64,000 nt of DNA, from positions 5,266,625 to 5,330,624 of the forward strand of contig OW818688.1 in assembly GCA_942493265.1 (NCBI GenBank), given 5' to 3'. Under the pieces are notes generated by a model that ran no database searches, had not been told where the DNA came from, and saw nothing but the letters and a program-made list of their open reading frames with translations. A program made the translations under genes and the position numbers. The stretch comes from an uncultured Bacteroidota bacterium. Lineage in GTDB: Bacteria > Bacteroidota > Bacteroidia > Bacteroidales > UBA12481. Positions 25,080 to 58,203 of the stretch are shown here, piece after piece (the stretch's first letter is position 1; every line of letters begins with the position of its first letter).

Positions 25080-25595
25080 ATGATGCGACAGCTCACAAAT
25101 GATGAACATGGCCGTCTCGACGTAGAAGGATTTAAGTCGGCCGACAAGAACCCGGTAATCGTTGTCCTCGACAATGTCCGAAGTCTGAATAATATAGGAT
25201 CCATCTTCCGTTCCTGTGATGCATTCCGGATCGAAAAGCTCATCCTGTGCGGCATCAGCACCCCACCCCCGCACCGCGATATCCATAAAAGCGCCCTTGG
25301 TGCGGAACTATCAGTTGACTGGCAATATTTCGAGAACACCGCCGATGCCATAACCGATCTCAAATCAAAAGGCTACCGGATATTTGCCATCGAGCAAACC
25401 ACCCATAGCATTCCGCTCAACGAATTCACCCTGTCGGCACCCGCAGCCATCATTTTCGGCCACGAAATCCACGGCGTATCCCCGGAAGTCCTCGCCCTTT
25501 GCGAAGCCGCCATCGAAATCCCCCAATACGGCACCAAGCACTCGCTCAATGTAGCTGTGAGCGTAGGGATCCTCCTCTACCAAATCACCCAATAA
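25080..25595 (+). CDS. SpoU/TrmH-family RNA methyltransferase
   Basis: VVLDNVRSLNNIGSIFRSCDAF, IFGHEIHG and IPQYGTKHSLNVAVS motifs. Confidence 0.9.
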   Translation: MMRQLTNDEHGRLDVEGFKSADKNPVIVVLDNVRSLNNIGSIFRSCDAFRIEKLILCGISTPPPHRDIHKSALGAELSVDWQYFENTADAITDLKSKGYRIFAIEQTTHSIPLNEFTLSAPAAIIFGHEIHGVSPEVLALCEAAIEIPQYGTKHSLNVAVSVGILLYQITQ

Positions 25596-25710
25596 TGTGC
25601 TAATGTGTTAATTTGCTAATGTGCTAATTTTAGAAAAGTTGCATGCCGTCATGCAATGGCGATTCTTCAATTAGCAAATTGACAAATTAACCCATTAGCA
25701 AATTGGCATA
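25593..25710. repeat. Inverted pair of 8-mer tandem arrays around a central palindrome
   Basis: Five TAATKTGC-like units (25593-25632), central TTGCATG-CCGT-CATGCAA (25639-25656), about five reverse-complement GCAAATTA-like units (25666-25710). Confidence 0.85.
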
Positions 25711-25746
25711 CCCACCAAAGCTTAATTTTTACTCGGATACAAACTT

Positions 25747-25762
25747 AACTAACTTCTTAGTT
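25747..25762. promoter_or_regulatory. Putative BlaI-family operator
   Basis: Perfect dyad AACTAA-CTTC-TTAGTT overlapping the expected -33 region of the blaI promoter. Confidence 0.6.
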
Positions 25763-25783
25763 GGATATTTAAGTTTCTCGTTG

Positions 25784-25791
25784 TACCTTTG
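25784..25791 (+). promoter_or_regulatory. -7 promoter box (TACCTTTG) for blaI
   Basis: TAnnTTTG 17 bp upstream of ATG 25808. Confidence 0.7.
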
Positions 25792-25807
25792 TTAAAAACG
25801 TAACAAC

Positions 25808-26179
25808 ATGCGCGATTTAACAAAAGCCGAGGAACAGATCATGCAGGTATTGTGGAACATACAGCCTGCATTCGTTAAGGACATCATTGCAGAGCTCCCG
25901 GTGCCCAAGCCTGCATACAGCACGGTTTCCACGATAGTAAGAATTCTCGAGTCGAAAGGGTTTATCGATCATGAAGCATTCGGGCCCACGCACCGGTACT
26001 TTGCACTGGTGAGCAAGGACGAATACTCACACTTTTCCATGAAAAAGATGCTCGAAAATTATTTTGACGGCAGCCTGAAGCAAATGGTTTCCTCCTTCAC
26101 CAACCGTGAAAACATCAATCTGAAGGAGATGGATGAAATTCTGAAAAAGCTAGAGCAAATCGAAAAACCAAAGCCATGA
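25808..26179 (+). CDS. BlaI/MecI/CopY-family transcriptional repressor
   Basis: LTKAEEQIMQVLW, YSTVSTIVRILESKGF and NYFDGSLKQMVS motifs. Confidence 0.92.
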   Translation: MRDLTKAEEQIMQVLWNIQPAFVKDIIAELPVPKPAYSTVSTIVRILESKGFIDHEAFGPTHRYFALVSKDEYSHFSMKKMLENYFDGSLKQMVSSFTNRENINLKEMDEILKKLEQIEKPKP

Positions 26180-27966
26180 ACCTGATTCAGAACATTATAC
26201 TAACCAACCTCTTTATCATACTGATCTATCTGGTATATAAGGCTGGGTATAGCCGCAACAGCTTCTTCAAGGCTAACCGGTTTTTTCTGCTTACCGGGTT
26301 AGCCACCGCAATGGTTTTGCCCTGGATCAGTCCGGTTCTGAACTTTCTCAGTCCGGTAAATGAAATTCAATGGCTGCCTGCCGCACCGATTGTCGCGGAT
26401 GAAACGCTCATCATGGCCGAAGGAACCCTGGTGGAGCCGGAGTATGTCGCCAGCCCCCTTCAGCTGGCATTAAGGGTATATATGGCGATGACTGCCATCA
26501 TTTGCCTCACGAGCATACTCCTTTGGATCAAACTGCTTATTTCAACCCGTAAAGCGCCTGTGCACCGGTATGGCCAGATGAAGGTAATCGTCATAAAAAG
26601 AAGCTGGACTGCATTCAGTTTTTTTCGCACCATATTCTATCCTCACCCTTTTGATCCGACGTTGCCCGAAACCAGGCTCATCCTTGAGCATGAGCTGGTT
26701 CACTCCAGGCAATTGCATACACTCGACAATCTTTTTTACGGAGTCGTTCGCCTCCTTTTCTTCTTCAATCCGTTCATTCATCTGCTGCATAAAGAATTAA
26801 TGATTACCCATGAATATCTGGCCGACCGATTGACCTCCGGCAATGACCGGCCGGGATATTCCCGCATATTGATCAGCCATCAGTTTAAAGTCCCCCATTT
26901 TCTATTGATGCATCCATTTAACAAACAATCATTTTTAAAAAGGAGACTTAACATGTTATCGAAAAGCACACAAAATCACCTGGCAGGTTGGAAATACCTG
27001 CTCGCACTGCCCTTACTCGGAGGTATGATCCTGGCCAGTTCCTGGACCGTCACAGCCCAGGATCAGGCAAAGAAAAGCAAGGAAGAAATTGCAAAAATGG
27101 CCGTAGAGAAGGAACTCACCAAGGCAGGATACTCAAAAGCGGAGATCGAGGAGATCAAGCTTCGCATTGATGGAATTCCTTATTCAAAGGAAGTGTTAGG
27201 TAAACCTACACCACCCAAAGAACCATTAAAAGGTAAAATGGAAGGTACAAACCAGCAGGTTTTCCTTATTGTTGAAGATATGCCAACCTTTCAGGGCGGG
27301 ACCGTGGAGAATTTCAGGAACTGGGTTCAGAAAAACGTTAAGTACCCGGCTGAGGCAAAAGCCAAAAAGATCTCCGGTACGGAATATGTCTCCTTTGTGG
27401 TTGACACCATGGGCAAAGTCAGCAATATTACTATTGTCAGAAGCTCCAGCCCGATCCTCGACGAAGAGGTAATACGGGTAATGAAATCAGCTCCCGACTG
27501 GAACCCAGGCAAGCAGAGGGGACAGCCGGTTAATGTATCCTTCTCGATTCCTGTTAAATTTATGCTGGATAAAACGCCAGCCAAAAAGGTAGATGGAAAG
27601 TCAGAAACTAAAAAGGCGAATCCGGTAAAACCGGACGAAGCGGAAAAACAGGTTTTCCTGATCACGGAAGAGATGCCTGAATTCCAGGGTGGAACCCTTG
27701 ATAAATTCCGGAACTGGGCTCAGGCAAATGTTAAATACCCGGCAAAAGCCATGGAGAACAGTATATCGGGAACCGTGGAAGTTGGTTTCATTGTGAACCG
27801 GGACGGAAAGGTTGAGGATGTTCATATCGTAAAAAGCGTTGATCCTGTTCTGGATGATGCGGTTATCAATGTAGTTAAGTCATCGCCCGACTGGACTCCA
27901 GGTAAGCAGCGGGGAAAAGTGGTTAAAGTCTCCCAAAACATGCCCATAAAATTCATCCTTCAGTAG
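26176..27966 (+). CDS. M56 (BlaR1-like) peptidase fused to two TonB C-terminal domains
   Basis: HELVH...HEYLAD M56 motifs; two copies of E-x-MP-x-FQGG...VKYP...F-x-V...G-x-V...SPDW-x-PGKQRG. Confidence 0.88.
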   Translation: MNLIQNIILTNLFIILIYLVYKAGYSRNSFFKANRFFLLTGLATAMVLPWISPVLNFLSPVNEIQWLPAAPIVADETLIMAEGTLVEPEYVASPLQLALRVYMAMTAIICLTSILLWIKLLISTRKAPVHRYGQMKVIVIKRSWTAFSFFRTIFYPHPFDPTLPETRLILEHELVHSRQLHTLDNLFYGVVRLLFFFNPFIHLLHKELMITHEYLADRLTSGNDRPGYSRILISHQFKVPHFLLMHPFNKQSFLKRRLNMLSKSTQNHLAGWKYLLALPLLGGMILASSWTVTAQDQAKKSKEEIAKMAVEKELTKAGYSKAEIEEIKLRIDGIPYSKEVLGKPTPPKEPLKGKMEGTNQQVFLIVEDMPTFQGGTVENFRNWVQKNVKYPAEAKAKKISGTEYVSFVVDTMGKVSNITIVRSSSPILDEEVIRVMKSAPDWNPGKQRGQPVNVSFSIPVKFMLDKTPAKKVDGKSETKKANPVKPDEAEKQVFLITEEMPEFQGGTLDKFRNWAQANVKYPAKAMENSISGTVEVGFIVNRDGKVEDVHIVKSVDPVLDDAVINVVKSSPDWTPGKQRGKVVKVSQNMPIKFILQ

Positions 27967-27981
27967 CCACATTCCCAACGC

Positions 27982-28007
27982 GTCACTTGTCACTCGTCAC
28001 TTGTCAC
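27982..28007. repeat. 7-mer tandem array GTCACTY x3.7
   Basis: GTCACTT GTCACTC GTCACTT GTCAC between the stop codon and the terminator. Confidence 0.8.
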
Positions 28008-28008
28008 C

Positions 28009-28048
28009 AAAAAAAAGAGCCGCTTCGTAAGAAGCAGCTCTTTTTTTT
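28009..28048. terminator. Bidirectional intrinsic terminator
   Basis: A8-GAGC-C-GCTTC-GTAA-GAAGC-A-GCTC-T8. Confidence 0.88.
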
Positions 28049-28061
28049 ATCTGGTGAATGA

Positions 28062-29786
28062 CTATTTCACGATTCCCTGGAATTTTGCATCAGCAAAGAA
28101 TTTACTGAATTCAAGATCAGTTTTAGCCATCTGTTTCAGATCAGCCTGGGCAGCAACTGCAGCCTCGAGTGATTTGAACATGTTGGCACTCTGTCCCTGA
28201 CGTGCATAAACAACTGCCCTAAGGTAGTTGGTCATGGCATTGGGATCAGTAATACAATCCAGAGTTTTCAGGGCTTTTGCATAGTCCTTGTTCAGGGTTT
28301 GAGCCAAAGCTGCGTTGAACAAACAGGAAGCACCGAAGTTGGTAACAGCCTGACTGTAATTGCCATTCTTCACATTTACGATACCCATGTTGTGGTCAAC
28401 CTGGCTTCCGGCACCTGCAGCACTGCGGAATAAACCTTCAGCTTTTGCGAAATCACCTTCTGAAAGGGCAATAACACCAAGGTTATTCAGAACGATCGGG
28501 TCATTAGCTTTCAGACTGTTGGCTTTTTCGAAAGCAGTTTTACCTGTTTTCATATCGCCAAGCTGAACGGCTGTCATTCCGTAATCATTCCAGGTGCGGT
28601 AATCGGAAGAGAATTTTTCAGTTGCAGCTTTATAGATGCTGTTCTGAACTTTAACATCTTTGGTTAGAGTAGCTGCATAGAGAGCTTCTTCAACGTTAAG
28701 ATCGGCCGGTGTGCTGGTAGCGATTTTCAGTAATTCCGCATCGGATTTCCCGATAACGTCAACATTTACTGAGAATTTCGAACGACGCAAAGCCGGTAAA
28801 ATCTGATCGGCCAATTCAGTGAAAGCAGCAGAGATATTACGAATTTCCTTTTCACGTGTTTCAGGATCATTATACATCGACAAAACACGTAAAATCAGAT
28901 CTTTATCCTGAATTTTTGATTTGGCAACCATTTCCTTGAAACCTTCCCAGTCTTCAGCGGTGGACATGAGTTTAAAGAATTCACCCTGGTCAGCCTTTGA
29001 AACCTTCATGGTTTCAAGTTCTTTTTTGAAGAATGAAGATGCGGTTTTCGAGCGTTCCTTTGCAAGTTTCTCGTTCAGGCCCAGTTCACCGTCAGGTGAT
29101 GCATAAGCAGAAACATCAATTCCTTTGATATTGTAATTCGACTTTGAATTGGCAGCCTTAACTTTTTCTTTCAGTGCGGTAACGTCCTCTGATTTCATTT
29201 CGGTTTTTTTAACCTCAGCTTTATTGATATCATAGTTGATATCAGCCTGATAAGTTTCCGGAACAATTCTCTGGAATTTATCAGCAGCCACAACCACTTC
29301 ACCTGCCTGATTGGCAAGCAGTACCGGAGTGGAAATAACGCCATCGGCAACTTTCACCGGCTCGAATGAAACTTTTTTCAGTTTCATGGAAGCATCAACT
29401 TTAACCACCAGTTCGGATTGACGCATGTCCTTGGTGTAAGGAACGGTGCCTTCGTAAGTTACCTTACCACCTGAAGAATAGTTAACTACTTTGTTGTTGG
29501 CGGTAACCTTTTCACCCTGCAGGGTCAGCGGCTTGAATTCAACGTCCCCTGAAGGAGTTTTTAAAACCGGAGTTGCAACTACAACGGCCTTCTTGTTAAA
29601 GAATTTTTCAGGATAGCTTGCTACGAGTGTCAACCCAACGTTGCCACCATGCAATTCCAAAATCTCGGGTTTTACTTCATACTTAATCCCTGATGCGGAT
29701 TTCTTCATCTTGTTAAGCCCGCTGCAGCCCGAAAAGAGGGCTATGACTGCAACAGCCATCAAAATACTGAGGTTGAATTTCTTCAT
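28062..29786 (-). CDS. Lipoprotein with OmpA-like domain and C-terminal TPR repeats
   Basis: Lipobox FSGC; AYASPDGELGLNEKLAKERS (OmpA-like); TPR helices (WNDYG, LNNLG, NMG). Confidence 0.75.
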   Translation of the reverse strand: MKKFNLSILMAVAVIALFSGCSGLNKMKKSASGIKYEVKPEILELHGGNVGLTLVASYPEKFFNKKAVVVATPVLKTPSGDVEFKPLTLQGEKVTANNKVVNYSSGGKVTYEGTVPYTKDMRQSELVVKVDASMKLKKVSFEPVKVADGVISTPVLLANQAGEVVVAADKFQRIVPETYQADINYDINKAEVKKTEMKSEDVTALKEKVKAANSKSNYNIKGIDVSAYASPDGELGLNEKLAKERSKTASSFFKKELETMKVSKADQGEFFKLMSTAEDWEGFKEMVAKSKIQDKDLILRVLSMYNDPETREKEIRNISAAFTELADQILPALRRSKFSVNVDVIGKSDAELLKIATSTPADLNVEEALYAATLTKDVKVQNSIYKAATEKFSSDYRTWNDYGMTAVQLGDMKTGKTAFEKANSLKANDPIVLNNLGVIALSEGDFAKAEGLFRSAAGAGSQVDHNMGIVNVKNGNYSQAVTNFGASCLFNAALAQTLNKDYAKALKTLDCITDPNAMTNYLRAVVYARQGQSANMFKSLEAAVAAQADLKQMAKTDLEFSKFFADAKFQGIVK

Positions 29787-29829
29787 AACTACCGGTTTTA
29801 TGTTTGTTATTTCGTTTTTCAATGTACGA

Positions 29830-29837
29830 CAAAAATA
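29830..29837 (-). promoter_or_regulatory. -7 promoter box (TATTTTTG)
   Basis: TAnnTTTG 44 bp upstream of ATG 29786. Confidence 0.55.
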
Positions 29838-29899
29838 TAAATCTTTTGGAGATCAATGTAAAAAAACCAATGCATCCTTGAAAATGTTCCCCATACACT

Positions 29900-30571
29900 T
29901 TACACTTCCTGATGCAGAAAAGCTCTTGACAAACCCGGAGGATATTCCTGCCCGAATATGGTATTCAAAAGGTTATGATAATCCTTCTCATTATTCACAA
30001 AATCGATTTCCCGGGTATCAACAACCAGTATTCGCATAGAAGGTTCCTGGCGGAAGAAATCAAAATACCCGGTTTGAATTTTCTTCAGATATTCTGCAGT
30101 AATGGCCGACTCATATTCGCGACCCCGGTTCCAGATATTGATCAGAAGATTATCGGGATCCTGATGCAGATATACATACAGGTCGGGCTTCGGCAGCGAT
30201 GAATACATGATATGAAAAAGCTGCGCATAGAGCTTGTATTCATCGCCGGTCAGGGTATTCCCTGCAAAAATCAGCGATTTCATAAAATAATAGTCGGCCA
30301 CGATGAACGGGGCAAAAATATCGGGATCGATAAGTTCCTTTTTCAACTGGGTATAGCGGTCGGCCAGGAATGACATTTCCAGTGGAAACGCAAAACGATC
30401 CTGATCCTGGTAAAACTTTGGAAGGAACGGATTGTCTGCAAATCTCTCCAGAATCAGGTGGCTGTTATAATCGGTGCTGATCCGGGTAGCCAGTGAAGTT
30501 TTCCCTGCACCGATATTTCCTTCGATGATAACCAGCCGGTAATTGCATGGATATATTTGATTCATTTCCAT
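29900..30571 (-). CDS. Deoxynucleoside kinase
   Basis: IEGNIGAGKTS P-loop, NPFLPKFYQD, KPDLYVYL and RGREYE. Confidence 0.9.
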   Translation of the reverse strand: MEMNQIYPCNYRLVIIEGNIGAGKTSLATRISTDYNSHLILERFADNPFLPKFYQDQDRFAFPLEMSFLADRYTQLKKELIDPDIFAPFIVADYYFMKSLIFAGNTLTGDEYKLYAQLFHIMYSSLPKPDLYVYLHQDPDNLLINIWNRGREYESAITAEYLKKIQTGYFDFFRQEPSMRILVVDTREIDFVNNEKDYHNLLNTIFGQEYPPGLSRAFLHQEV

Positions 30572-30584
30572 TGCCTAAAAATAG

Positions 30585-30610
30585 AAAATCCCCGCGATTG
30601 CGGGGATTTT
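30585..30610 (-). terminator. Intrinsic terminator after pnp
   Basis: AAAATCCCCGC-GATT-GCGGGGATTTT. Confidence 0.85.
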
Positions 30611-30637
30611 CCTGAGCGTATCTTATTAACCGATCTA

Positions 30638-32893: not shown

Positions 32894-32919
32894 GTTATAA
32901 AATCGGATTAAATGAGAAG

Positions 32920-32950
32920 AAAAAAAGGCAATTATGAAATTGCCTTTTTT
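32920..32950 (-). terminator. Terminator-like hairpin between rpsO and pnp
   Basis: AAAAAAGGCAATT-ATGA-AATTGCCTTTTTT. Confidence 0.8.
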
Positions 32951-32959
32951 CTTGATGGG

Positions 32960-33229: not shown

Positions 33230-33267
33230 CTTTGCTAAAATTTTACAGTTGTCTATAAATTAACGCG

Positions 33268-33275
33268 CAAAAATA
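33268..33275 (-). promoter_or_regulatory. -7 promoter box (TATTTTTG) for rpsO
   Basis: TAnnTTTG 39 bp upstream of the start. Confidence 0.65.
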
Positions 33276-33303
33276 CAAAAAACTTTTGAGAAAACAATTC
33301 CTG

Positions 33304-33987: not shown

Positions 33988-34018
33988 TGTAAAGTTTTAA
34001 GGTTATAAACACCGGCCG

Positions 34019-34507
34019 TCACATCCACCAGCCTTCCGGCCGGGTTACACAGAATTCTCCTTCCGGTTCCTTCTTCAGATCGAGGTCGAAACTCAGCTGC
34101 GGCCAGGTATAATCAATTTTCGACTCCACTACCCTTACATGGTAAGTACCGGCAGGCAAGTTGCGAACCAGGATATCAAGATTGAATAAACAGTTGCACT
34201 TGCATCCGTGTTTGGCATCCTCTTCGCGGATAATCAGGCTGTCGCCTTTAACTTCGATATCCATCACGAAGCTTTCCGGACAACAGTTGAAACCTGCATT
34301 GAAATGCATCAGGGTAAGCAGACTATCCCCATCATAACTGTATTTAATGCAGGATTGTTCAGGCACGGGATCACCTGTTTTCAAAAGGCCGTTCGATTTA
34401 CAAATCATATCCGAGGATACGGATATGGACAAAGGCCCCATGTTATCCTGTCGCTCGCAGGCCACAAACAACCCGCAAACCAATACCACAAACATTAATC
34501 TTTTCAT
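34019..34507 (-). CDS. 8-Cys lipoprotein (paralog of 35894-36385)
   Basis: Lipobox FVAC; NAGFNCCPE, CKCNCLFNLD and EGEFCVTR. Confidence 0.75.
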   Translation of the reverse strand: MKRLMFVVLVCGLFVACERQDNMGPLSISVSSDMICKSNGLLKTGDPVPEQSCIKYSYDGDSLLTLMHFNAGFNCCPESFVMDIEVKGDSLIIREEDAKHGCKCNCLFNLDILVRNLPAGTYHVRVVESKIDYTWPQLSFDLDLKKEPEGEFCVTRPEGWWM

Positions 34508-34515
34508 CTTATCCG

Positions 34516-34587
34516 TTCTTAACATTCTTTACCTTCTTAACCCCCTTAACTTCCTTAACTCCCTTAACTCCCTTAACATCCTTAACC
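34516..34587. repeat. 9-mer tandem array (YYCTTWACH x8)
   Basis: TTCTTAACA TTCTTTACC TTCTTAACC CCCTTAACT TCCTTAACT CCCTTAACT CCCTTAACA TCCTTAACC. Confidence 0.9.
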
Positions 34588-34610
34588 CTCTGTGCGTTCC
34601 GGATGGTTTT

Positions 34611-34636
34611 TAGGGGCGACCTCAGGTCGCCCCTAC
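34611..34636 (-). repeat. GTAG-type REP palindrome
   Basis: Minus strand GTAGGGGCGACC-TGA-GGTCGCCCCTA, 11-bp perfect stem; 22/23 identical to 58077-58099. Confidence 0.75.
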
Positions 34637-34647
34637 GGGATCGTACG

Positions 34648-35893: not shown

Positions 35894-36385
35894 TCACCTC
35901 CATGGATACCCGGTACGGGTAACGCAAAATTCTCCTTCAACGATTTTTTTGAAGTTGGTAATGAACAGGATCTTCTCCTCGCCCGCCTGTTGAACATAGG
36001 GCTCCACAACCTTGATATACCAGGTTTCCCGGGTGATACCGGTGAGAGTGTAGTCCAGGTCGAACAGACAGTTGCAGTCGCACAGACTGGAATTCTCCGA
36101 TTCTGATATAATCAGTGTATCTCCGCTAACCTGAAGGGCTACCCGGAAACCCTCAGGACAGCAATTAAATCCGGCATTAACGTGTTTGATAATTAAGGTA
36201 TCACCGTCCAGCCATTTGTATTGAATACAATCCTGATCGGACGAATGGGCTGCACCCGCTTTCAGGCTGATATCCTTACAATTGGTGTTGCCTGTGAGCT
36301 CAACCGAGGGCACGATTTTCCCTTCCCGGTCGCAGCCGGCAATCACGATCATAATAATGAACAGCCACTGATAAAAGGTTTTCAT
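35894..36385 (-). CDS. 8-Cys lipoprotein (paralog of 34019-34507)
   Basis: Lipobox IAGC; NAGFNCCPE, CDCNCLFDLD and EGEFCVTR. Confidence 0.75.
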   Translation of the reverse strand: MKTFYQWLFIIMIVIAGCDREGKIVPSVELTGNTNCKDISLKAGAAHSSDQDCIQYKWLDGDTLIIKHVNAGFNCCPEGFRVALQVSGDTLIISESENSSLCDCNCLFDLDYTLTGITRETWYIKVVEPYVQQAGEEKILFITNFKKIVEGEFCVTRTGYPWR

Positions 36386-36421
36386 ACACAGAACGATTAA
36401 AACGCCCGGGGGGACGCGCGT

Positions 36422-46280: not shown

Positions 46281-46315
46281 GTTATCAGTTGTCGGTTGTC
46301 GGTTGTCGGTTGTGG
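46281..46315. repeat. 7-mer tandem array GTTGTCG in the glnA 5' leader
   Basis: GTTATCA GTTGTCG GTTGTCG GTTGTCG GTTGTGG. Confidence 0.9.
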
Positions 46316-46342: not shown

Positions 46343-46350
46343 CAAAATTA
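46343..46350 (-). promoter_or_regulatory. -7 promoter box (TAATTTTG) for glnA
   Basis: TAnnTTTG about 80 bp upstream of the start. Confidence 0.6.
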
Positions 46351-46366
46351 CATTTTTTCCTGACAC

Positions 46367-46385
46367 CCCCCTATTTTTTAGGGGG
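46367..46385. promoter_or_regulatory. Dyad upstream of glnA, putative regulator site
   Basis: CCCCCTA-TTTTT-TAGGGGG at the -33 position. Confidence 0.5.
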
Positions 46386-46524
46386 TAATCCGAAATATTT
46401 ATCAACTTTTTGAAATATTCCTAACTTTTTTAACCTATTTCCTGATTAATCCAGATAATATTTCACATCTTGAAGGAGAGATAGAAGTTATAGTCCCTGG
46501 GTATGCAAGAAAAAACAAAATCTC

Positions 46525-46584
46525 ACGCGAATACGCAAAGACGCAATCGTATCGAGCTAATTTGCGTCTTTGCGTCTCTGCGCG
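46525..46584. repeat. Inverted 8-mer arrays (ACGCAAAG / CTTTGCGT)
   Basis: 14-bp perfect arms ACGCAAAGACGCAA (46533-46546) and TTGCGTCTTTGCGT (46562-46575), 15-nt spacer, degenerate third units outside. Confidence 0.85.
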
Positions 46585-46668
46585 AAAAAAAAATTAATCA
46601 ATGAGATTCGAAGACCGCTTGTCAATACAAAAACGGCGAGGAGCATCTGCTCAGCCTGGCACGACCTC

Positions 46669-46700
46669 ACCGACAACCGACAACCGACAACCGACAACCG
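46669..46700. repeat. 7-mer tandem array CGACAAC x4, inverse of 46281-46315
   Basis: AC-CGACAAC x4-CG, just downstream of the peptidase stop. Confidence 0.9.
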
Positions 46701-48069: not shown

Positions 48070-48103
48070 GTAATTGTTTGATTTTGTTGACACATCGTGC
48101 CGG

Positions 48104-50848: not shown

Positions 50849-50857
50849 CTCGAATAA

Positions 50858-51316: not shown

Positions 51317-51999
51317 TTTAATTTCTGAATAATTCCGAGCCTGGCCAGTTCGTTTTCCAGCAACTTCTTATCGTAGAAAAAACGGTCCTGAAACTTATTG
51401 TACCATTCCTTTGCCTCCGGAATCCTGTTTGCCGATGCCAGCAGATAGATGATATTGAAATAGGCCATTCCGTACTCAAAATATAAATCTGTATTGGCCA
51501 TTTCAATAAAAGCTTTGAGAGCGCCATTTCCGTCGGCCCTGCTAAAGGAATCGAACCCTCTGGTAACGATCTCGTTAAGCTTTGGATCCAAAATGATTCC
51601 CTGAACATAGAACTCGCGCTTGGGCATATTTTCGAGGAGGTCGAAATATTTTGTTCCTTTTGGCAGCGGTTTAAAAATGAGTGTGAATTCAAATGCCTCA
51701 TTCGGAGTGAACACGTGCTTTTCCGGGGCAAACGGAGCATTTACAGCGCGGATCAGCTTCATGCTGTTCGGGTCGCTTACCGGGCGGATGAACAGGTCGC
51801 GGGTTCGCAGGGTAAACGGGGCCATCTGTTTGGAATTTACAATCCGGATGGTCACACTGGTGGTTGAATCTGTTGTAACCACATTGGTAATGGAAAGTGT
51901 GGCGATTGGCTTGATAGCAATGTTCGGATTGATAACCAATTGTCCGAATACCGAAACCATAAAGCCTGACAGGAAAAAGACAGATAGAACTTTTTTCAT
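51313..51999 (-). CDS. Hypothetical exported protein with C-terminal TPR-like helices
   Basis: Signal peptide MKKVLSVFF; FTLIFKPLPKGTKYFDLLE beta-domain, then a helical tail. Confidence 0.6.
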   Translation of the reverse strand: MKKVLSVFFLSGFMVSVFGQLVINPNIAIKPIATLSITNVVTTDSTTSVTIRIVNSKQMAPFTLRTRDLFIRPVSDPNSMKLIRAVNAPFAPEKHVFTPNEAFEFTLIFKPLPKGTKYFDLLENMPKREFYVQGIILDPKLNEIVTRGFDSFSRADGNGALKAFIEMANTDLYFEYGMAYFNIIYLLASANRIPEAKEWYNKFQDRFFYDKKLLENELARLGIIQKLK

Positions 52000-52030
52000 T
52001 GCAATGATATACAAACGCATACGTACTTTT

Positions 52031-53422
52031 TTACAAACCATATTTGTCGTAAAGATACACCAAAGCTGCAATTCCGGCAGCCCCCATCTGCATCTCACGC
52101 CGGTCAACCTGTTCAAAAGTATCAGATGCAGCGTGGTGCAACTTAAAATAACGCTGATCTTCAGGAATTATTCCCATAAAAAGTATCTGCGGATAATAAT
52201 TTTTCAACGGTCCGACATCTGCTCCACCTCCGCCATTGGTGAGTTTAATATCATACGGAGCGAAAAGCGGCTCCCATTCCGCGAATTTTTTCATTTGTGC
52301 CGGATTACCGGTAACTGCCAGTGCCTTAGGCTGAAAAACCCCACGGTCAGACTCCAGTGCGGCGATATGCTTTTCGCCCCTGACTGAAGCCTCTTTTGCA
52401 TAAACCTGTCCGCCCCGCTGGGCAACTTCCTCATCCATGAACATCACTGCCCTGATGGTATGCTTCGGCCGGATTCCGGCTTTCTGAAACAACCGGAGCA
52501 CCTCAATCGACTGAATGCACCCGCCTCCGTCATCATGAGCCCCCTCTGAAATATCCCAGGCATCGAGGTGTCCGCCAATTGTAATGATTTCATTTGGCAA
52601 CTCCGAACCGCGGATTTCACCGATCACATTAAAGGAGGGCACATCCGGTCCCTCCAGGCAGGTTGTCCGGAAGAAAAAATGAAGATCCGCATCAGCTGCA
52701 AGATATCCGGAAAGCAAATCCGCAGCCCGGGTAGAAATTGCAATCGCCGGGATGTGCTTAACGTCATCGGCATAACGGGTGATGCCGGTATGTGGAAAAT
52801 CATCAATTTCGATGCTCATCGAACGGATCACACATCCGATGGCACCTAACCTGGCCGCCTCAACCGGTCCGTTGGTCCGTTGCCACACCGACTCCCCATA
52901 AGAAGCAAATGTACCGATATTGGTTTGTCTCATCGGCTGGTTGAAAAATACAATCCGACCTTCGATATCTTTATTTGATTTGCTTTTGAGCTCATCCAGA
53001 CTTTTTACTTCAACCACTTTTGCTGATAAACCGGAGTCACCGGTACCCACCGACCAGCCCAGTGCGCAGGAAGGCACAACCAGGGTTCCGAATTTTTCAG
53101 AAATAATCCGGGCAACCTCCGGCTCTCCGCGATCCCAGCTTTTAACCATTACCGGTTGTAGCCACACTGAATCCAGATCCATTTTCATCATCACCTGCCG
53201 GGTAAACTCGACGGCAGCTGCCGCTTCCGGCCTGCCGCATATCCGGCCTGCCGTATTCCTGCACAGCCACTCCAGATTATGATAGGCTTCATAACTGGTA
53301 AGGGCTTCATTGAATACTTTTCTGATAATATCTGCTTCAGCTGGTTGCTGTGATTTGGCCTGAATACCTGTGAGAAGACACAAGGCAACGGCTGTAAACC
53401 GAATGAACTCTATCTTTTTCAT
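52031..53422 (-). CDS. M28-family aminopeptidase (carboxypeptidase Q-like)
   Basis: GGHLDAWD, GAHDDGGG, MDEEVAQRG, ESDRG and HHAASDTF; PA-like insert. Confidence 0.88.
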   Translation of the reverse strand: MKKIEFIRFTAVALCLLTGIQAKSQQPAEADIIRKVFNEALTSYEAYHNLEWLCRNTAGRICGRPEAAAAVEFTRQVMMKMDLDSVWLQPVMVKSWDRGEPEVARIISEKFGTLVVPSCALGWSVGTGDSGLSAKVVEVKSLDELKSKSNKDIEGRIVFFNQPMRQTNIGTFASYGESVWQRTNGPVEAARLGAIGCVIRSMSIEIDDFPHTGITRYADDVKHIPAIAISTRAADLLSGYLAADADLHFFFRTTCLEGPDVPSFNVIGEIRGSELPNEIITIGGHLDAWDISEGAHDDGGGCIQSIEVLRLFQKAGIRPKHTIRAVMFMDEEVAQRGGQVYAKEASVRGEKHIAALESDRGVFQPKALAVTGNPAQMKKFAEWEPLFAPYDIKLTNGGGGADVGPLKNYYPQILFMGIIPEDQRYFKLHHAASDTFEQVDRREMQMGAAGIAALVYLYDKYGL

Positions 53423-53494
53423 GGTTTCAATATTAGTGATTTTAACCGTATCGGTTGGTTTTTTTTATATTTTCACCCCTCAATTCCTCATATT

Positions 53495-54595
53495 ATGACT
53501 ACATATAACGCCTTCCCCGGAAATCTGATCCTGGCAATCAATCCCAGAATACCGTTTACCAATATCGGTTTGTTCCGCAATCAGCAACTCGTTTTCCTGA
53601 AGAAGGTTATACATCCTGAAAGCGAACGGGGAAAATTCACCAGGTATGCTGAGGAGACAGCATACCGGGTTGAACAGATCATAAGAGAACTCAAAGCCAA
53701 CGACTTGCCCATCAATGATATCAAAATAATCATCAGCCGGGGCGGACTGGCCAGGCCGGTTCATGCCGGGGTTTACCGGGTAAATGATGCCATGATCAAG
53801 GACCTGCAGAACGGAATATCAGGCGAGGATGTGGTTAACCTGGGCGGACTGATCGCTCATGAATTATGCTTACAGATACCTGACTCCTCCGCATTTGTGG
53901 CAGATCCTGTTGTTGTGGATGAATTTGAGGATATAGCACGCGTTTCGGGTCATCCGGAATTCAGCCGGAGGTCGGTTTTCCATGCCCTTGAGCAAAAGGC
54001 GGTTGCCCGGAAATATGCTAAAACCGTGCAGAAAAAATATGAAGAATTAAACCTGATTGTGGCCCAGATGGGTAACGGAATTACCGTGGGGGCTCATCAG
54101 AAGGGTCGGGTTATTGACGCCAGCCAGGGACTGGGCGGCGACGGCCCGTTTTCGCCAACTCGCACGGGCACCATACCCATCGGCGACCTCATCAATCTGT
54201 GCTACAGCGGCAAATACACCCATGATCAGTTGTACTCCATGATTACCGTTAATGGGGGGCTCTTTGCTTACCTCGGAGTTCATGATGGTTATTCGGCCAG
54301 CCACATGGCCATGAATGGCGATGAAAAGGCAACCTTTTACCTGAAAGCCATGGCTTACCAGGTGGCCAAAACGATAGGAGCCATGTATGCGGTGCTTTCG
54401 GCTGACGCGGATGCCATACTTCTCACTGGCGGATTGGTGAACAGTTCGGTATTTATGGAAGAACTTCAGATGAGAATCAGAAATATTGCTCCGGTACACA
54501 CCTATCCCAATGAAGATGATGTGGAAACCCTCGGGCTAAATGGATTTTATATTTTGAACGGCGAGATCACGGTCGAAGATAATTACCCCGACTGA
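53495..54595 (+). CDS. Butyrate kinase homolog (divergent)
   Basis: SRGGLARP, DPVVVDE, FHALEQKAVAR, GDGPFSPTR and LTGG match the Buk fold, but several catalytic motifs are altered. Confidence 0.8.
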   Translation: MTTYNAFPGNLILAINPRIPFTNIGLFRNQQLVFLKKVIHPESERGKFTRYAEETAYRVEQIIRELKANDLPINDIKIIISRGGLARPVHAGVYRVNDAMIKDLQNGISGEDVVNLGGLIAHELCLQIPDSSAFVADPVVVDEFEDIARVSGHPEFSRRSVFHALEQKAVARKYAKTVQKKYEELNLIVAQMGNGITVGAHQKGRVIDASQGLGGDGPFSPTRTGTIPIGDLINLCYSGKYTHDQLYSMITVNGGLFAYLGVHDGYSASHMAMNGDEKATFYLKAMAYQVAKTIGAMYAVLSADADAILLTGGLVNSSVFMEELQMRIRNIAPVHTYPNEDDVETLGLNGFYILNGEITVEDNYPD

Positions 54596-54608
54596 TCAAA
54601 GAATTCTG

Positions 54609-55388
54609 TTATTTATTGTTTCCCCAGGAAGGTTTGCGCTTTTCCAGAAAAGCTTTCATTCCCTCTTGCCCTTCATCATTAAACAGCTCGGCAAAGTGCT
54701 CTTTCTCCATGTCCAGCGCTTTCTGAAAATTCATGTCGATACCTTTACGAAGCAATATTTTGGCCGAGCGAACCGCCTTAGGTCCGCGGCCCGCAATAAT
54801 TCCGGCAAGTTTCATTGCCTGATCGGGCAGCTGATCCGGCTCGGCGAGATCCTGCACCAGCCCAATCCGGTATGCCTCCGCAGCATCCATGGTTAAACCT
54901 GACAAAATCCATTTTAATGCACCACCCAAACCTATCAGCCTCGACAATCGCTGTGTTCCGGCATAACCCGGGACCAGCCCGAGATTTACTTCCGGTTGTC
55001 CGAATTTAGCTTCAGTAGAAGCGATTCTGATATCACAGGCCATAGCCAGCTCACAACCTCCACCCAGAGCATATCCGTTAACCGCTGCAATCACCGGAAT
55101 AGGCAAATCTTCAATCATCAGGAAAGTTTGCTGCCCCCTTTCAGCGAATCGCCGAGCCCCGTCGGCATCCAACCCGGCCAGCTCCGAAATATCAGCACCT
55201 GCCGCAAAGGCTTTCCCCTCACCGGTTATAACCAACACGTCAATCGGCTCATCAGTAACTATATAATCCAGATAATCAACCAACTCGGTAAAGAAAACCG
55301 AATTCAATGCATTCAGGGTAGCCGGCTTCGAGAGGGTAAGAAGTCCAACCCTTCCAATTTGCTGGGGTTTAATAAACTGATAGTTCAT
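54609..55388 (-). CDS. Enoyl-CoA hydratase/crotonase
   Basis: FAAGADI, GGGCELAMACD and QPEVNLGLVPGYAGTQRL (both catalytic Glu present). Confidence 0.9.
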   Translation of the reverse strand: MNYQFIKPQQIGRVGLLTLSKPATLNALNSVFFTELVDYLDYIVTDEPIDVLVITGEGKAFAAGADISELAGLDADGARRFAERGQQTFLMIEDLPIPVIAAVNGYALGGGCELAMACDIRIASTEAKFGQPEVNLGLVPGYAGTQRLSRLIGLGGALKWILSGLTMDAAEAYRIGLVQDLAEPDQLPDQAMKLAGIIAGRGPKAVRSAKILLRKGIDMNFQKALDMEKEHFAELFNDEGQEGMKAFLEKRKPSWGNNK

Positions 55389-55445
55389 AGGAGATAATTA
55401 TTAAAGAAAGTTAGATATAAATATATGTATATCCAAGAGTCCGGC

Positions 55446-57920
55446 CTAATTCGACTTAATGACCTTGCGCGACTCCGTGCGGTCCCCAACCCGCAATCGG
55501 CATACATATACCCCGGGACTCACTTTTAATCCGTTCTGGTTTGCACCGTTCCAGATAACCTCATATTCAGCAGGAACATATTCTCCATCGCATAAAACGG
55601 CAACCTTGCTTCCCCTGAGATCGAAAATTTCCGCAACAACCGTTGATTTGTCAGGGACAATAATTTTGAAACGTGTTTCCTCAACAAAGGGATTCGGAAA
55701 GCTTTCCGACAATAATGCGGAGGTGGTAAGGTCGCGGGTGGAAATCCTTATTGTTGAATAGGATTCCCGGTTATTTTTATCCACTACCCGCACTTTAATC
55801 TCATATTCGGTATCCGGTTTCTGGGGCCGGCAAAACAACCATCCCGTTTCATCAAACTTTGTTTCCTCAGGGCACAGATACGGGTTGATCAGCAACGCAT
55901 TGATCCCGGTTTCGCGTTCCGGATTAAAATCAGATATTCTTCGGAATTGCCGGCCGTCACCATTGGATACTCCAATATCCATGGTTGTTCCCGATGGGAA
56001 CAGCACATCAGGCTTATCATAAATATAATGAATCCTTCCGTCCGGATAGATTTCACAAACGATCTTTATCAGCTCACCCCCTTCGGCAGTAGGAACCATG
56101 GCCTTCCATGTGACAGCTAACAATGTATCAGTTCCATATATACTGATGGAATTATCGCTCATGTAATAATCCAGGTCGGTACCAAATCCATTGATTTTTC
56201 TGACGGATCGAAACACGAGCCCCGAATCGATCACGTACGGATATCCGGATTCCTCATGATCAAACAGTATTTCAGCATCTTCTGTGATGGAGAAGTGGTC
56301 ATATTCAATTCCGAAAAACCTGAACTTGAATGGTAGGCTTATCCTGTTGACCGGATTGCCGAAATTTCCACTGTACAACAATTCTCCCTCCCGGTCGGGA
56401 ACCGGCAATTTCCCAAATCCGATCTGATAATCAGGAACAAGTTCCCAGGCATAGGGACTCGCCGCACCTGAAACCTCCATCTGGAGAGAAACATAGTCTC
56501 CCGCTTTTGCAAAAAGTTTTGGGACCTCTTTTATTTCGATACGATTAAACCGCACGGGTCGCACCACACTTAAAAGGGTGCGGGAATTGTTGCGGACCGG
56601 AACCATAGTTTGCTCAGATACCGTTGAATCACGCGTATTAAATTGATTATAAACCATTAGCGACCTGACAACGCCTTCGTTGCCCCCCCCTGGATCCTTT
56701 TCATCAATAATCAGAAAGATCCTGACCGGACCATCAGTTGTAATAAGATCAGTCAAGGGAGAAATATCCAGCCCGAGTTCAAACAGGGTGGTATCGGGTT
56801 TCTGATTACTGAACAAGGGATATTGGGCACCCTGGTATCTGAACATTGGCAATTCCAGAATATGCTCAGGCTCTGTGGCATCAGGATCATTCGAAACTCC
56901 CGCCATTATCCGGATGTTACCCCGGCAGCTGTGCGACAGGGAAGCCCGGATGGTTAAAATGGGTTCAGTGGTTTTGACAGCCTCCACAATATGTACCGAC
57001 TTATTCCACAAACCACCCTCCTGTCCGCACCGCCCGAGCAGATGGTAGGGAACATAGGCAAATCCGCTGTCGCCCCACCCTTTACCCCACGTATTTGCAA
57101 CGATCAGGGCGCCCTTTTCAAAATCCATCAGGTCAACGACATGGTCACCATTGATATCGACATTATTGGTGTATTCCCTATCATCATTCCGATCCAGCCG
57201 GATGGAATCGTTGTACCCGACCACTGTCAGGGCATGACCCACATAAACGCCAAAGGTGGTAATATAGGAAGCTCCTTCATCATAGGAATTAACCGGCAGC
57301 CTGCCCAGGTTCATGCCACCGCTGGCAATCTGAAAATTAGCCATTCCGCCAAATTTCGATCCGTCGAAATGATCAAACAGATATCTCTTTAATATCTGCA
57401 ACCCTTCAGGGGTGCCCACCGGCAACGACCAGTTTTTTGTCACGCGGTTTTGCATGGCACGGTAATAACGGTCGTAACCCGACATCCAGAACTTCAGATC
57501 GCTCTTGTTCGGATAATCAACCTCATTGGGTGCTCCGCCAGCCTTAATAATCTCCCAGCTGTCGAAATAGCTGACCCCTTTTGTTGAATTTGAGCTGTTC
57601 AGAAAATTCCAGACATATAGCGGCAGGTAACGGTTTTCAGGCAAGCTGCCATCCGCCAGGCGCAAACGGTTTAATTCGTAGGTAAGAAGATATCCGATTG
57701 AGCTCGATTGATTGCAGCTCCAGCCGTACTGCTCGAATATATCAGGGAAATATTTGCTTTTCGCCAGGTTGACTTTTGCCGGGAGCTTAACGGAGGATTT
57801 CAGCCTGATAGCATCAGGGACCGGATAAACCGGAAAATCCGGTCCCTCCGTCATAACCTGACCATTTGCAAGGGCTGCTGACAGCCAGAATCCCAATATG
57901 ATAAGACTCCATCGCATCAT
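55446..57920 (-). CDS. Secreted papain-like (C1) cysteine protease with C-terminal T9SS/FlgD-like domain
   Basis: QYGWSC (Gln/Cys), GHALTVVGYND (His), NTWGKGWGDSG (Asn); C-terminal FPNPF...SPGVYVCRL. Confidence 0.82.
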   Translation of the reverse strand: MMRWSLIILGFWLSAALANGQVMTEGPDFPVYPVPDAIRLKSSVKLPAKVNLAKSKYFPDIFEQYGWSCNQSSSIGYLLTYELNRLRLADGSLPENRYLPLYVWNFLNSSNSTKGVSYFDSWEIIKAGGAPNEVDYPNKSDLKFWMSGYDRYYRAMQNRVTKNWSLPVGTPEGLQILKRYLFDHFDGSKFGGMANFQIASGGMNLGRLPVNSYDEGASYITTFGVYVGHALTVVGYNDSIRLDRNDDREYTNNVDINGDHVVDLMDFEKGALIVANTWGKGWGDSGFAYVPYHLLGRCGQEGGLWNKSVHIVEAVKTTEPILTIRASLSHSCRGNIRIMAGVSNDPDATEPEHILELPMFRYQGAQYPLFSNQKPDTTLFELGLDISPLTDLITTDGPVRIFLIIDEKDPGGGNEGVVRSLMVYNQFNTRDSTVSEQTMVPVRNNSRTLLSVVRPVRFNRIEIKEVPKLFAKAGDYVSLQMEVSGAASPYAWELVPDYQIGFGKLPVPDREGELLYSGNFGNPVNRISLPFKFRFFGIEYDHFSITEDAEILFDHEESGYPYVIDSGLVFRSVRKINGFGTDLDYYMSDNSISIYGTDTLLAVTWKAMVPTAEGGELIKIVCEIYPDGRIHYIYDKPDVLFPSGTTMDIGVSNGDGRQFRRISDFNPERETGINALLINPYLCPEETKFDETGWLFCRPQKPDTEYEIKVRVVDKNNRESYSTIRISTRDLTTSALLSESFPNPFVEETRFKIIVPDKSTVVAEIFDLRGSKVAVLCDGEYVPAEYEVIWNGANQNGLKVSPGVYVCRLRVGDRTESRKVIKSN

Positions 57921-58011
57921 TCGAAATTTTAGGCAAATTAGTGACATATTTCGATATATCGATAGCAGAGGTGAAGAATGGGTACGCGGATACGCAGGGA
58001 GGCATGTAGAA

Positions 58012-58071
58012 CGTAAAGAGAGTAAAGAAGGTGAAGAGAGTTAAGGAGGTGAGGAGGTGAGGAGGTGAGGG
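58012..58071. repeat. Tandem array: four 9-mers (RGTDAAGRR-like) then three GGTGAGGR 8-mers
   Basis: CGTAAAGAG AGTAAAGAA GGTGAAGAG AGTTAAGGA GGTGAGGA GGTGAGGA GGTGAGGG. Confidence 0.8.
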
Positions 58072-58076
58072 GGATC

Positions 58077-58099
58077 GTAGGGGCGACCTGCGGTCGCCC
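58077..58099 (+). repeat. GTAG-type REP palindrome
   Basis: GTAG-GGGCGACC-TGC-GGTCGCCC. Confidence 0.75.
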
Positions 58100-58203
58100 A
58101 CAAAATTTCACAAGGGGAAAAAATGAAATTGGCAAACCCCTGCGGTCGCCCACAAAATTTCACAAGGGGAAAAAATGAAATTGGCAAACCCCTGCGGTCG
58201 CCC
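58087..58203. repeat. Exact 52-bp direct tandem repeat (two copies plus 13 bp)
   Basis: CCTGCGGTCGCCCACAAAATTTCACAAGGGGAAAAAATGAAATTGGCAAACC at 58087 and 58139; CCTGCGGTCGCCC again at 58191. Confidence 0.92.

Follow-up and report, generated by a model that had tools for sequence, protein, structure and literature searches.

Short tandem-repeat arrays and REP-like hairpins as variable elements of gene junctions in an uncultured Bacteroidales lineage

The window analysed here is a stretch of 64,000 nucleotides from an uncultured Bacteroidota bacterium of the order Bacteroidales (contig OW818688.1 of assembly GCA_942493265.1, positions 5,266,625 to 5,330,624 of the forward strand), and several of its gene junctions carry arrays in which units of 7-9 bp are repeated head to tail. 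We assign these arrays with high confidence to the class made up of STRRs, repetitive sequences whose short units are repeated in tandem, and long simple sequence repeats (SSRs), newly seen in this Bacteroidales lineage, on the grounds that tandem units of 5-11 nt occur beyond chance, are biased towards intergenic DNA, are abundant in a lineage-specific manner, vary between close relatives and include hairpin-forming pairs. Comparison with related genomes shows that at a few permissive junctions the arrays arise, vanish and switch unit while the sequences on either side diverge far more slowly, and that unit families and composites of array and hairpin have been dispersed among the junctions of one genome. 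We slightly favour, at a probability of roughly 0.55, the reading that the arrays are modules of a lineage-specific intergenic mosaic, composed of 7-10-bp tandem arrays and GC-rich hairpins resembling repetitive extragenic palindromes (REP), which would grow by slippage, be dispersed between junctions and be subject to selection at the level of the mRNA.

Tandem arrays at the gene ends of the window

Using Tandem Repeats Finder (TRF), we counted six arrays of period 6-10 and score of at least 45 in the 64 kb, compared to an expectation of 0.01 after dinucleotide shuffles of the whole window and of 0.000 after shuffling its 5.1 kb of intergenic DNA alone. Out of 27 intergenic regions that measure 40 nt or more, five contain all of the arrays, and a chance origin is excluded. 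A sequence-only reading of the window, made earlier from its letters, had described intergenic arrays of 7-9-bp units in five regions close to gene ends, and TRF finds an array at every place it named; the same reading had proposed a comparison with shuffled intergenic DNA, and the count is indeed far above that level. Its description of a different unit in each array is only partly borne out, in that the units do vary, but the arrays at 34516 and 58012 have a GTTAAGRRR-like unit in common and unit families recur across relatives.

An inverted-repeat search identifies three pairs of arrays in the window, in agreement with the three hairpin-capable pairs of the sequence-only reading. At the junction of the SpoU methylase gene (25053-25595; Pfam) with blaI, the left arm of a foldback (25593-25635, plus strand, TRF score 58) is built of about five TAATKTGC units, called by TRF as 4.5 copies of TAATGTGC at 25593-25628, and the methylase gene terminates at the TAA with which the first of these units opens. 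The complementary right arm (25663-25708, plus strand), located about 100 nt upstream of blaI (25808), consists of A/C-rich GCAAATTR units, and the loop between the two arms holds a small hairpin, GTTGCATG-CCGT-CATGCAAT (25638-25658, plus strand). The arms are 83% complementary over 42 nt (25594-25635 and 25663-25704), and the predicted RNA fold of 25585-25715 reaches -44.5 kcal/mol, corresponding to a z-score of -7.1 relative to shuffles.

The second and third pairs share the spacer between the M20 peptidase gene and glnA, which encodes a type III glutamine synthetase. Here, a post-stop arm (46669-46700, minus strand) with 4.6 copies of CGACAAC, read as GGTTGTC on the gene strand, lies 7 nt past the peptidase stop codon (46708) and complements a pre-start arm at 46281-46313 (minus strand). 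The latter comprises 3.7 copies of GTTGTCG at 46288-46313, which a degenerate GTTATCA unit carries back to 46281; on the glnA strand it reads as about four CAACCGA units (3.7 by copy number) terminating in CAACTGATAAC. It is G-poor and would fall within the 5′ untranslated region (UTR) of glnA, where a conserved promoter block lies upstream of it and the ATG (46264-46262) follows after 23 nt. The two arms are 93% complementary over 30 nt (46281-46310 and 46669-46698) and 358 nt apart. Between them sits a small nested foldback (46523-46585, no strand assigned) consisting of 2.8 copies of ACGCAAAG, a 15-nt loop and 2.8 copies of CTTTGCGT, which TRF reports as ACGCAAAG and TTTGCGTC, 2.8 copies each, at 46525-46546 and 46561-46582, and the inverted-repeat search as a pairing of 46523-46546 with 46562-46585. 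In the predicted RNA fold of this spacer (-167 kcal/mol, z-score -8.6 relative to shuffles), the long-range stem between the arms encloses all of its 355 nt.

The remaining arrays are solo. The one at 27982-28007 (plus strand; TRF and inverted-repeat search), with 3.7 copies of GTCACTY (GTCACTT in the TRF call), begins 15 nt past the stop codon of the BlaR/TonB gene and directly precedes a bidirectional terminator-like hairpin at 28009-28048. A 9-mer array at 34507-34591 (minus strand), with 9.3 copies of CTTAACNCC in the TRF call and about nine copies of GGNGTTAAG on the gene strand, occupies the junction between a serpin stop codon and a lipoprotein start, and ends at the ATG (34507) of that 168-aa lipoprotein. 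Between a sulfatase stop codon and the start of an 833-aa gene, a composite array at 58008-58070 (plus strand; TRF), C/T-rich on the gene strand, starts out as about 3.7 copies of GTAAAGAGA / GTTAAGGAG and grades into 3.4 copies of GGTGAGGA.

Two of these solo arrays adjoin the same REP, as the sequence-only reading had noticed: GGGCGACCNNNGGTCGCCC occurs exactly twice in the 64 kb, at 34614 and 58081, each time beside an array. The first palindrome, TAGGGGCGACCT-C-AGGTCGCCCCTA (34611-34635), adjoins the 9-mer array, and the second, GGGCGACCTGCGGTCGCCC (58081-58099), abuts the composite one; neither has an assigned strand. With its GC-rich, imperfect palindrome GGGCGACCNNNGGTCGCCC fits the REP form, though with only two copies per 64 kb, and the tandem arrays themselves are not palindromes of this kind. 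Overlapping the second copy is a 52-bp tandem repeat (58087-58211, plus strand, 2.4 copies, 97% identical, TRF score 236), every unit of which opens with CCTGCGGTCGCCC, half of the REP site, and continues with ACAAAATTTCACAAGGGGAAAAAATGAAATTGGCAAACC; by its looks, the repeat arose from the REP through tandem duplication not long ago.

Turnover, dispersal and polarity among related genomes

We scanned a genome collection with the glutamine synthetase and recovered 73 Bacteroidota loci, 12 of which belong to close relatives with 88-95% amino-acid identity and strictly conserved gene order, all of them uncultured Bacteroidales metagenome-assembled genomes (MAGs) from freshwater or groundwater; related loci are designated by L numbers below. 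A metagenome scan with BlaR gave one distant locus only. Most of the 73 glnA loci are without arrays, which are dense in a few other Bacteroidota and in the sister clade, whose genomes L001-L009, L046 and L049 have as many as 0.43 per kb.

In a table of 19 syntenic junctions across 13 genomes, arrays are restricted to some of the junctions, and filled and empty alleles are clear-cut, as the sequence-only reading had suggested might be found among relatives; an allele filled with a gene is found at none of the 19. At the g52031|g51313 junction, for example, the empty allele of the window, L005 and L073 is an overlap of the two genes, and the filled alleles carry 14 copies of AGGTTAG in L001, eight of TGATGTGA in L008, 3.7 of AAGGCAC in L004 and an inverted pair, GGCTCAG / CTTGAGC, in L049. 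The genomes L001 and L049 are 94.2% identical at the nucleotide level over 19 kb, and their alignment is broken only at three array-bearing junctions, namely g52031|g51313, g40661|g39501 and the spacer immediately preceding glnA, which demonstrates that array turnover is much faster than point divergence. The clade is strictly syntenic, has housekeeping genes beside the arrays and offers filled as well as empty alleles at about 94% identity, and so constitutes a clean comparative system in which array birth, replacement and polarity can be read directly.

The M20|glnA spacer, compared over 11 genomes, has two fixed array positions, one immediately after the peptidase stop codon and one immediately before the glnA ATG, at which the units differ by genome: GGTTGTC, AGTCGGC, GACCGAT and AAGCGTG after the stop codon, and CGACAAC, CGATAAC, CCYGATA and TAACYGG before the start codon, with the array missing altogether in some genomes. 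Exact TAACTGA or TAACTGG units precede glnA in L001, L049 and L008. All relatives (L001-L008, L046, L049 and L073) also retain a strongly conserved block upstream of glnA (window 46343-46386, minus strand), which runs from GTTGATAAATATTT through a hairpin of the form ACCCCC-N8-10-GGGGG to a TAnnTTTG element resembling the Bacteroidetes -7 box and has no Rfam match; it is probably the glnA promoter together with a regulatory hairpin.

Replacement is also seen elsewhere. The serpin|lipoprotein junction has orthologous arrays of related units in L046 (21597-21671) and L049 (21641-21673), and an 8-mer array of AATKTGCT in L073. In L074, a distant relative with 59% BlaR identity, the spoU|blaI junction holds a short palindrome of the TAATKTGC-type 8-mer, TAATTTGCTAATTAGCAAATTAGCAAATTA (415-450), and the 3′ junction of BlaR/TonB, where the window has its GTCACTY array, carries a REP-like hairpin pair instead. 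A promoter-proximal block of blaI, TTAGTTGGNTATTTAARTTTNTCGTTGTACCTTTG, is kept between L074 and the window. We considered whether the TAATKTGC palindrome might be a BlaI operator, which is unlikely, since a TAATKTGC-type unit is also found after the serpin gene of L073, and closer to the blaI promoter there is another inverted repeat, which is conserved.

Several unit families recur, namely YAACYNR with its complement GGTTRYC, the TRATKTGN 8-mers, GGCAGTN, AAGGCNM and the GTTAAGRRR 9-10-mers, and all of these are shared between junctions and between genomes. The TAATKTGC family, for instance, is found at 25593 of the window, at 21510 of L073 and in L074, and an array of TGATKTGA stands at four junctions of L008. 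Entire composites are repeated as well: in L009, a GGTTGCC array with a CCAGAACTGTCATTCCGGCGAAGGCCGGAATC REP-like hairpin is present at two junctions (7326 and 11610), and in L001 a CCCCTTCCCC...GGGAGAGGGG hairpin with YAAC heptamers likewise occupies two. The recurrence of composites and unit families at several junctions of one genome implies that arrays are copied between sites and not only born in place. Inverted pairs are found in L008 (two), L009, L049 and the window (three), and what they enclose is REP-like hairpins or a promoter, never an open reading frame (ORF).

Some of the hairpins could be followed individually. A GC-rich element, CCACCTCACCCCCTTCCCC...CGCGCTCGC...CACGGGAGAGGGGAGCGC, accompanied by degenerate YAAC heptamers, lies at 8190-8260 and 15690-15760 of L001 and at 8190-8250 of L049, and by comparison with L049 the L001 element appears to have been inserted into an earlier heptamer tract. 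Clusters of REP-like hairpins of the types GTCATTCCGGCGAAGGCCGGAATC and GGTCCCCGCTTTCGCGGGGATGAC lie in L008 (17611-17926) and L009 (7326-7477 and 11610-11686), with inverted GGTTGCY / RGCAACC arrays on either side. The L008 copy holds an assembly gap, a run of N, which illustrates a practical side of these arrays: they break assemblies, inflate ORF calls and can pass for CRISPR-like repeats.

Placement and orientation are far from random. Although about 92% of the clade DNA is ORF, 40 of 42 arrays are intergenic, and for 19 of 36 the distance to a stop or start codon is no more than 7 nt, where 6.9 would be expected under uniform placement in their own spacers; the first unit often opens with the stop codon of the neighbouring gene. 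On the sense strand, post-stop arrays are G/T-rich and C-poor, with a mean GC skew of +0.39, and pre-start arrays A/C-rich, with a mean of -0.45 (p = 6e-5, a value that is optimistic, as orthologous arrays are non-independent observations). ATG is found in none of 16 pre-start arrays versus 10 of 24 post-stop arrays, and an AAC core in 10 of 16 versus 1 of 24. Eleven of the 16 pre-start arrays are positioned 2-36 nt upstream of the start codon, and the other five 42-96 nt upstream. We rejected the idea that the arrays supply stop codons in all three frames as a general rule, which holds for no more than 9 of the 24 post-stop arrays and 5 of the 16 pre-start ones. To judge from the sequences, the arrays would add 30-100 nt to the 5′UTRs of essential genes such as glnA, apparently with no harm.

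These patterns are consistent with a mechanism in several steps. Copy number would rise and fall by slipped-strand mispairing, and hairpin-templated copying may keep the two arms of a pair complementary. The dispersal of composites between junctions would call for an agent that does not appear to be encoded in the window. Selection on the mRNA might then determine the site and orientation of the arrays that survive: outside ORFs only, with no ATG and little G before the starts of genes that are independent of a Shine-Dalgarno sequence, and with C-poor, stop-codon-containing units next to stop codons; the pattern itself is observed, and it is its cause that we infer. Finally, by analogy with an intervening sequence (IVS) in the 23S rRNA of Coxiella, paired arms might form double-stranded RNA that is cut by RNase III or acts as a terminator or stabiliser, and a stem of this type would leave the flanking housekeeping genes unharmed by the insert.

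Published repeats and the arms around two gene families

Heptamer STRRs have been in use as fingerprinting markers since 1990, with no accepted origin or function; Mazel et al. reportedly described them in that year as short tandemly repeated repetitive heptanucleotides of heterocystous cyanobacteria. The sequence-only reading had taken the arrays of the window for a candidate undescribed system, which is wrong, as repeats of this kind have been published as heptamer STRRs (PMC2670836), as long SSRs (PMC4692102), as TAACTGA repeats (PMC4679880) and as heptamers in the Coxiella IVS (PMC4990558). The cyanobacterial STRRs form hairpins between genes, for example hupS and hupL, and have no known function (PMC2670836). 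Like them, the arrays described here are tandem 7-bp units, of several types per genome, that are intergenic, often hairpin-forming between genes and variable among strains; they differ in their host, an uncultured Bacteroidales, in their unit sequences, in that periods of 8-10 are also common, and in their coupling to REP-like hairpins.

The GGGAATC heptamers of Xanthomonas and Nostoc are 89-93% intergenic, lie near ORF ends and vary between close relatives, with the G-rich strand being coding downstream of ORFs and non-coding upstream of them (Rehm 2015, PMC4692102). Intergenic position, closeness to ORF ends, strand polarity and variability between relatives are thus common to both, but the window units are not G-quadruplex-forming, and several of the window arrays are paired foldbacks. 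Direct repeats of TAACTGA, in forward orientation and 1-43 nt before start codons, have been reported for Beggiatoaceae, cyanobacteria and five Bacteroidetes including Paludibacter, were proposed as translational regulators, and correspond to shorter, repeat-free spacers in close relatives of their carriers (MacGregor 2015, PMC4679880). The forward heptamers shortly before start codons, such as those at 46288-46313, which end 23 nt before the glnA ATG, are similar in kind, but where one heptamer dominates the Beggiatoa genome we find many unit families, and half of the arrays are post-stop.

The Coxiella 23S rRNA IVS contains an S23p (four-helix-bundle) ORF and, upstream of it, two to three GACAGAT heptamers, in a number that varies between strains, the first of which is the site of the 5′ cut by RNase III (Warrier 2016, PMC4990558). 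It resembles the pairs described here in having inverted repeats that form a stem around a small insert, whereas the window elements lie between protein-coding genes, have no ORF and are known from predicted folds. Inverted arrays also bracket a 23S rRNA gene (4016-6927) in L024, a more distant Bacteroidales MAG, with AGTTTGG arrays in two blocks before it (3824-3924) and 4.5 copies of a roughly complementary 8-mer, GAAACTCT, after it (7004-7039), at the position of the RNase III processing stem; a 10-mer array of the CTCTGTG type lies 3′ of the 5S gene of the same genome (7324-7366).

REP elements of Enterobacteria and the bacterial interspersed mosaic elements (BIMEs) that they compose are intergenic mosaics located after stop codons in operons, with palindromic units in alternating orientation that are present in one relative and absent in another. 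REP-like hairpins accompany the arrays in this clade too, but the modules of BIMEs are palindromes of 30-40 bp and not head-to-tail 7-9-mers, and the annotated genes of the window include no REP-associated tyrosine transposase (RAYT). In eukaryotes, foldback transposons have long terminal inverted arms of short tandem repeats, the number of which varies, and may or may not contain coding sequence between them; the likeness to the window elements is one of form only, with no homology and no evidence of transposition.

The sequence-only reading had also mentioned, as unverified, that inverted arrays of this sort flank genes of the four-helix-bundle (TIGR02436) and GxxExxY (TIGR04256) families in Bacteroidota. 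Both families are abundant, multi-copy and functionally blank, and four-helix-bundle proteins are related to Avd, the accessory protein of diversity-generating retroelements. The association is real: all 10 four-helix-bundle loci inspected have an adjacent tandem array, 9 of 10 on both sides, and in 8 of 10 the arrays are inverted arms with a locus-specific unit. These arms read GGTTYAA / TTRAACC at iscA|sufB in Riemerella, TTAGCTG / AGCTAAA in Calothrix, AGTAGGG / TCCCTAC at nrdA|nrdB in Nostoc, AAAAGGG / CTTTTCC in Geminocystis and AGGAGATA / ATCTCCTA at cmr2|cmr3 in Picosynechococcus, with further examples in Azospirillum, Leptolyngbya and Gemmatirosa. Across 50 kb of Riemerella DNA, period-7 arrays are limited to the two that flank the four-helix-bundle gene; here the arrays come with the cassette. 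A Nostoc plasmid has ORF-less inverted pairs beside a pair that bears a four-helix-bundle gene, all of one unit family. Genes of the GxxExxY family are less regular in their flanking arrays: Bacteroides finegoldii has three copies of CACAGAGGA and 2.8 of CTCTGTGNC, Bernardetia the same CACAGAG / CTCTGTG motif, and Sphingomonas 3.1 copies of ACGCGAAG directly upstream, which is the unit of the nested window pair at 46525, and Treponema and a fusobacterium show no more than one inverted repeat or a direct repeat.

Genes of the two families are found wedged within operons, separating genes of linked function, at cas6|cas4, cmr2|cmr3, nrdA|nrdB, iscA|sufB and fabD|fabG (plasmid records L085, L086, L077, L075 and L093), and the two whose orientation relative to the operon was checked, those of Calothrix and of nrdA|nrdB in Nostoc, are antisense to it, an arrangement typical of selfish insertions.

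The window pairs at 25594/25663 and 46281/46669 have the layout of these cassettes, with inverted 7-9-mer arms of a locus-specific unit filling the gap from stop to start codon, and can in form be regarded as its ORF-less version. As we picture the layout, which also surrounds intervening sequences, a G/T-rich arm would follow immediately after one stop codon and a complementary A/C-rich arm would precede the next start. Since the association with the two gene families is real, the earlier proposal that the arrays are non-autonomous derivatives of such elements remains a live reading. A link between the arrays and the two orphan gene families is plausible and was not found described in the literature searched, where no paper joins four-helix-bundle/S23p or GxxExxY terms with heptamer or STRR repeats, the study of the Coxiella IVS (PMC4990558) is the only published link found, and a search for TIGR02436 returned no paper. 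The family PF05635 is discussed in PMC10053308. If true, the link through layout would merge STRRs, two orphan gene families and intervening sequences processed by RNase III into one testable question.

Weighing the explanations

A number of observations weigh against the mosaic of dispersing arrays and hairpins, or against its connection with the cassettes. None of a four-helix-bundle, GxxExxY, RAYT, transposase or reverse transcriptase gene was found in the window, and by tblastn with hand-written consensus sequences neither the window nor any of 74 related loci (about 1.3 Mb) contains a gene or a remnant of the first two families, although the same consensus sequences did retrieve, from a plasmid collection, genes of both families that are annotated as such; the link to the cassettes thus rests on layout, and not on sequence shared within the clade. 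The arms at M20|glnA are complementary only in the window and L001, those of L002, L004, L008 and L046 being non-complementary or single, so that a conserved RNA stem is not required there, and we have accordingly dropped the idea of a conserved long-range stem insulating glnA. Most arrays are solo and unpaired, their units change from copy to copy, in contrast to transposons, whose terminal inverted repeats are conserved, and no target-site duplication is seen when filled and empty junctions are compared. First units seeded on a stop codon are explained by local slippage as well as by insertion, and the p-value quoted above for polarity is, as stated, optimistic.

A bolder reading would unite STRR arrays, the arms of four-helix-bundle and GxxExxY genes and the 23S intervening sequences in one widespread class of selfish foldback cassettes, whose arms would serve both as a recognition structure for mobilisation and as an RNase III-cleavable stem, and of which the window would contain non-autonomous members. 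Such cassettes might wedge into gene junctions and structured RNAs of Bacteroidota, Cyanobacteria, Proteobacteria and others; we put this forward tentatively, as a possibility with the odds against it.

The main rival to the mosaic is pure local polymerase slippage, according to which the arrays are born in place from 7-9-mers at gene ends and are neutral, non-mobile and functionless, being merely kept out of ORFs. Heptamers are the dominant long SSRs in many bacteria, for which slippage has been proposed and is the standard explanation (Mrazek 2007, as related in PMC4679880; PMC4692102), the stop codon of the neighbouring gene forms part of the first unit in TAATGTGC at 25593 and in the four TAAAGA copies of L049, and the ancestral spacers were tiny or overlapping, so that any duplication would abut a gene end. 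We nevertheless regard it as rather unlikely that slippage accounts for everything, as unit families and array/hairpin composites recur across junctions and genomes, unrelated units are swapped at one junction between 94%-identical genomes, complementary arms of the same unit stand 27-358 nt apart, which is beyond slippage alone, and the Riemerella arrays are found only around the inserted four-helix-bundle gene. A regulatory role in cis seems less probable still: the units, particularly YAACYNR in 5′UTRs, would dock a protein that binds single-stranded RNA or DNA (S1, an OB fold of the cold-shock type, or another) and so tune the adjacent gene. The enrichment of the AAC core before start codons, TAACTGA and TAACTGG units included, and the distance of 2-36 nt shared with the TAACTGA repeats (PMC4679880) are what one would expect from this, and deletion of heptamer repeats altered the read-out of the recO promoter in reporter assays (bioRxiv 10.1101/2022.06.06.494920). 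However, the essential genes glnA, prfA and the M20 peptidase gene are array-free in sister species, relatives have wholly different units at one junction, post-stop arrays and those between convergent genes have no start codon to control, and no candidate binding protein was identified.

Two further explanations take up suggestions of the sequence-only reading. One is that the inverted pairs are empty target sites, either scars left after the loss of a four-helix-bundle or GxxExxY cassette or ready-made landing pads. Their layout is identical to that of the ORF-bearing cassettes, and the GxxExxY gene of Sphingomonas is preceded by a ACGCGAAG array that agrees with the ACGCAAAG unit at 46525, yet the tblastn search uncovered no ORF remnant between the window arms, no orthologous junction of the 12 sister genomes holds an inserted gene (0 of 19 junctions across the 13 genomes), and in relatives the arms enclose no decayed coding sequence but REP-like hairpins or the promoter of glnA; we consider this explanation improbable. 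The other is a dedicated repeat-synthesising enzyme, a reverse transcriptase or telomerase-like activity that adds units by copying a short template. Circumstantially, the kinship of four-helix-bundle proteins with Avd and the narrow period of 7-9 would suit it, but the annotated genes of the window are all housekeeping genes, with no reverse transcriptase or comparable gene among them, the units are locus-specific and not copies of one template, and arrays often begin at a local stop codon. We found no evidence for such an enzyme and think its existence very improbable.

Other known types of repeat were also set aside. The arrays are not clustered regularly interspaced short palindromic repeats (CRISPR), which have repeats of 23-50 nt and unique spacers, for their units of 7-9 nt run head to tail with no spacers. 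As SSRs of phase variation they would be oddly placed, being outside ORFs, beside the housekeeping genes for SpoU, glutamine synthetase, M20 peptidase and serpin, and, at glnA, downstream of the promoter block. Miniature inverted-repeat transposable elements or insertion sequences do not fit either, since the arm units differ by locus and there is no flanking direct duplication; yet some composites are common to two loci.

As to the neighbouring genes, those flanking the arrays are housekeeping genes of an ordinary kind, which code for the SpoU methylase, BlaI, BlaR/TonB, a TPR protein, serpin, the lipoprotein, the type III glutamine synthetase, the M20 peptidase, PNPase, S15, RF-1, PurM, PyrF, iPGM and other proteins; the annotated genes of the window include no transposase, reverse transcriptase or RAYT. 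Exact-protein look-ups with two window proteins matched no record. Five long spacers of 424-709 nt (1997-2705, 2985-3507, 19652-20166, 35998-36421 and 60157-60587) have no tandem arrays, and the last of them holds the sole Rfam match of these spacers and of the window as a whole, tRNA-Phe at 60400-60473. The BlaR-like protein (26176-27966) is a sensor fusion, with one M56 peptidase domain and two TonB C-terminal domains, and is encoded beside its BlaI repressor.

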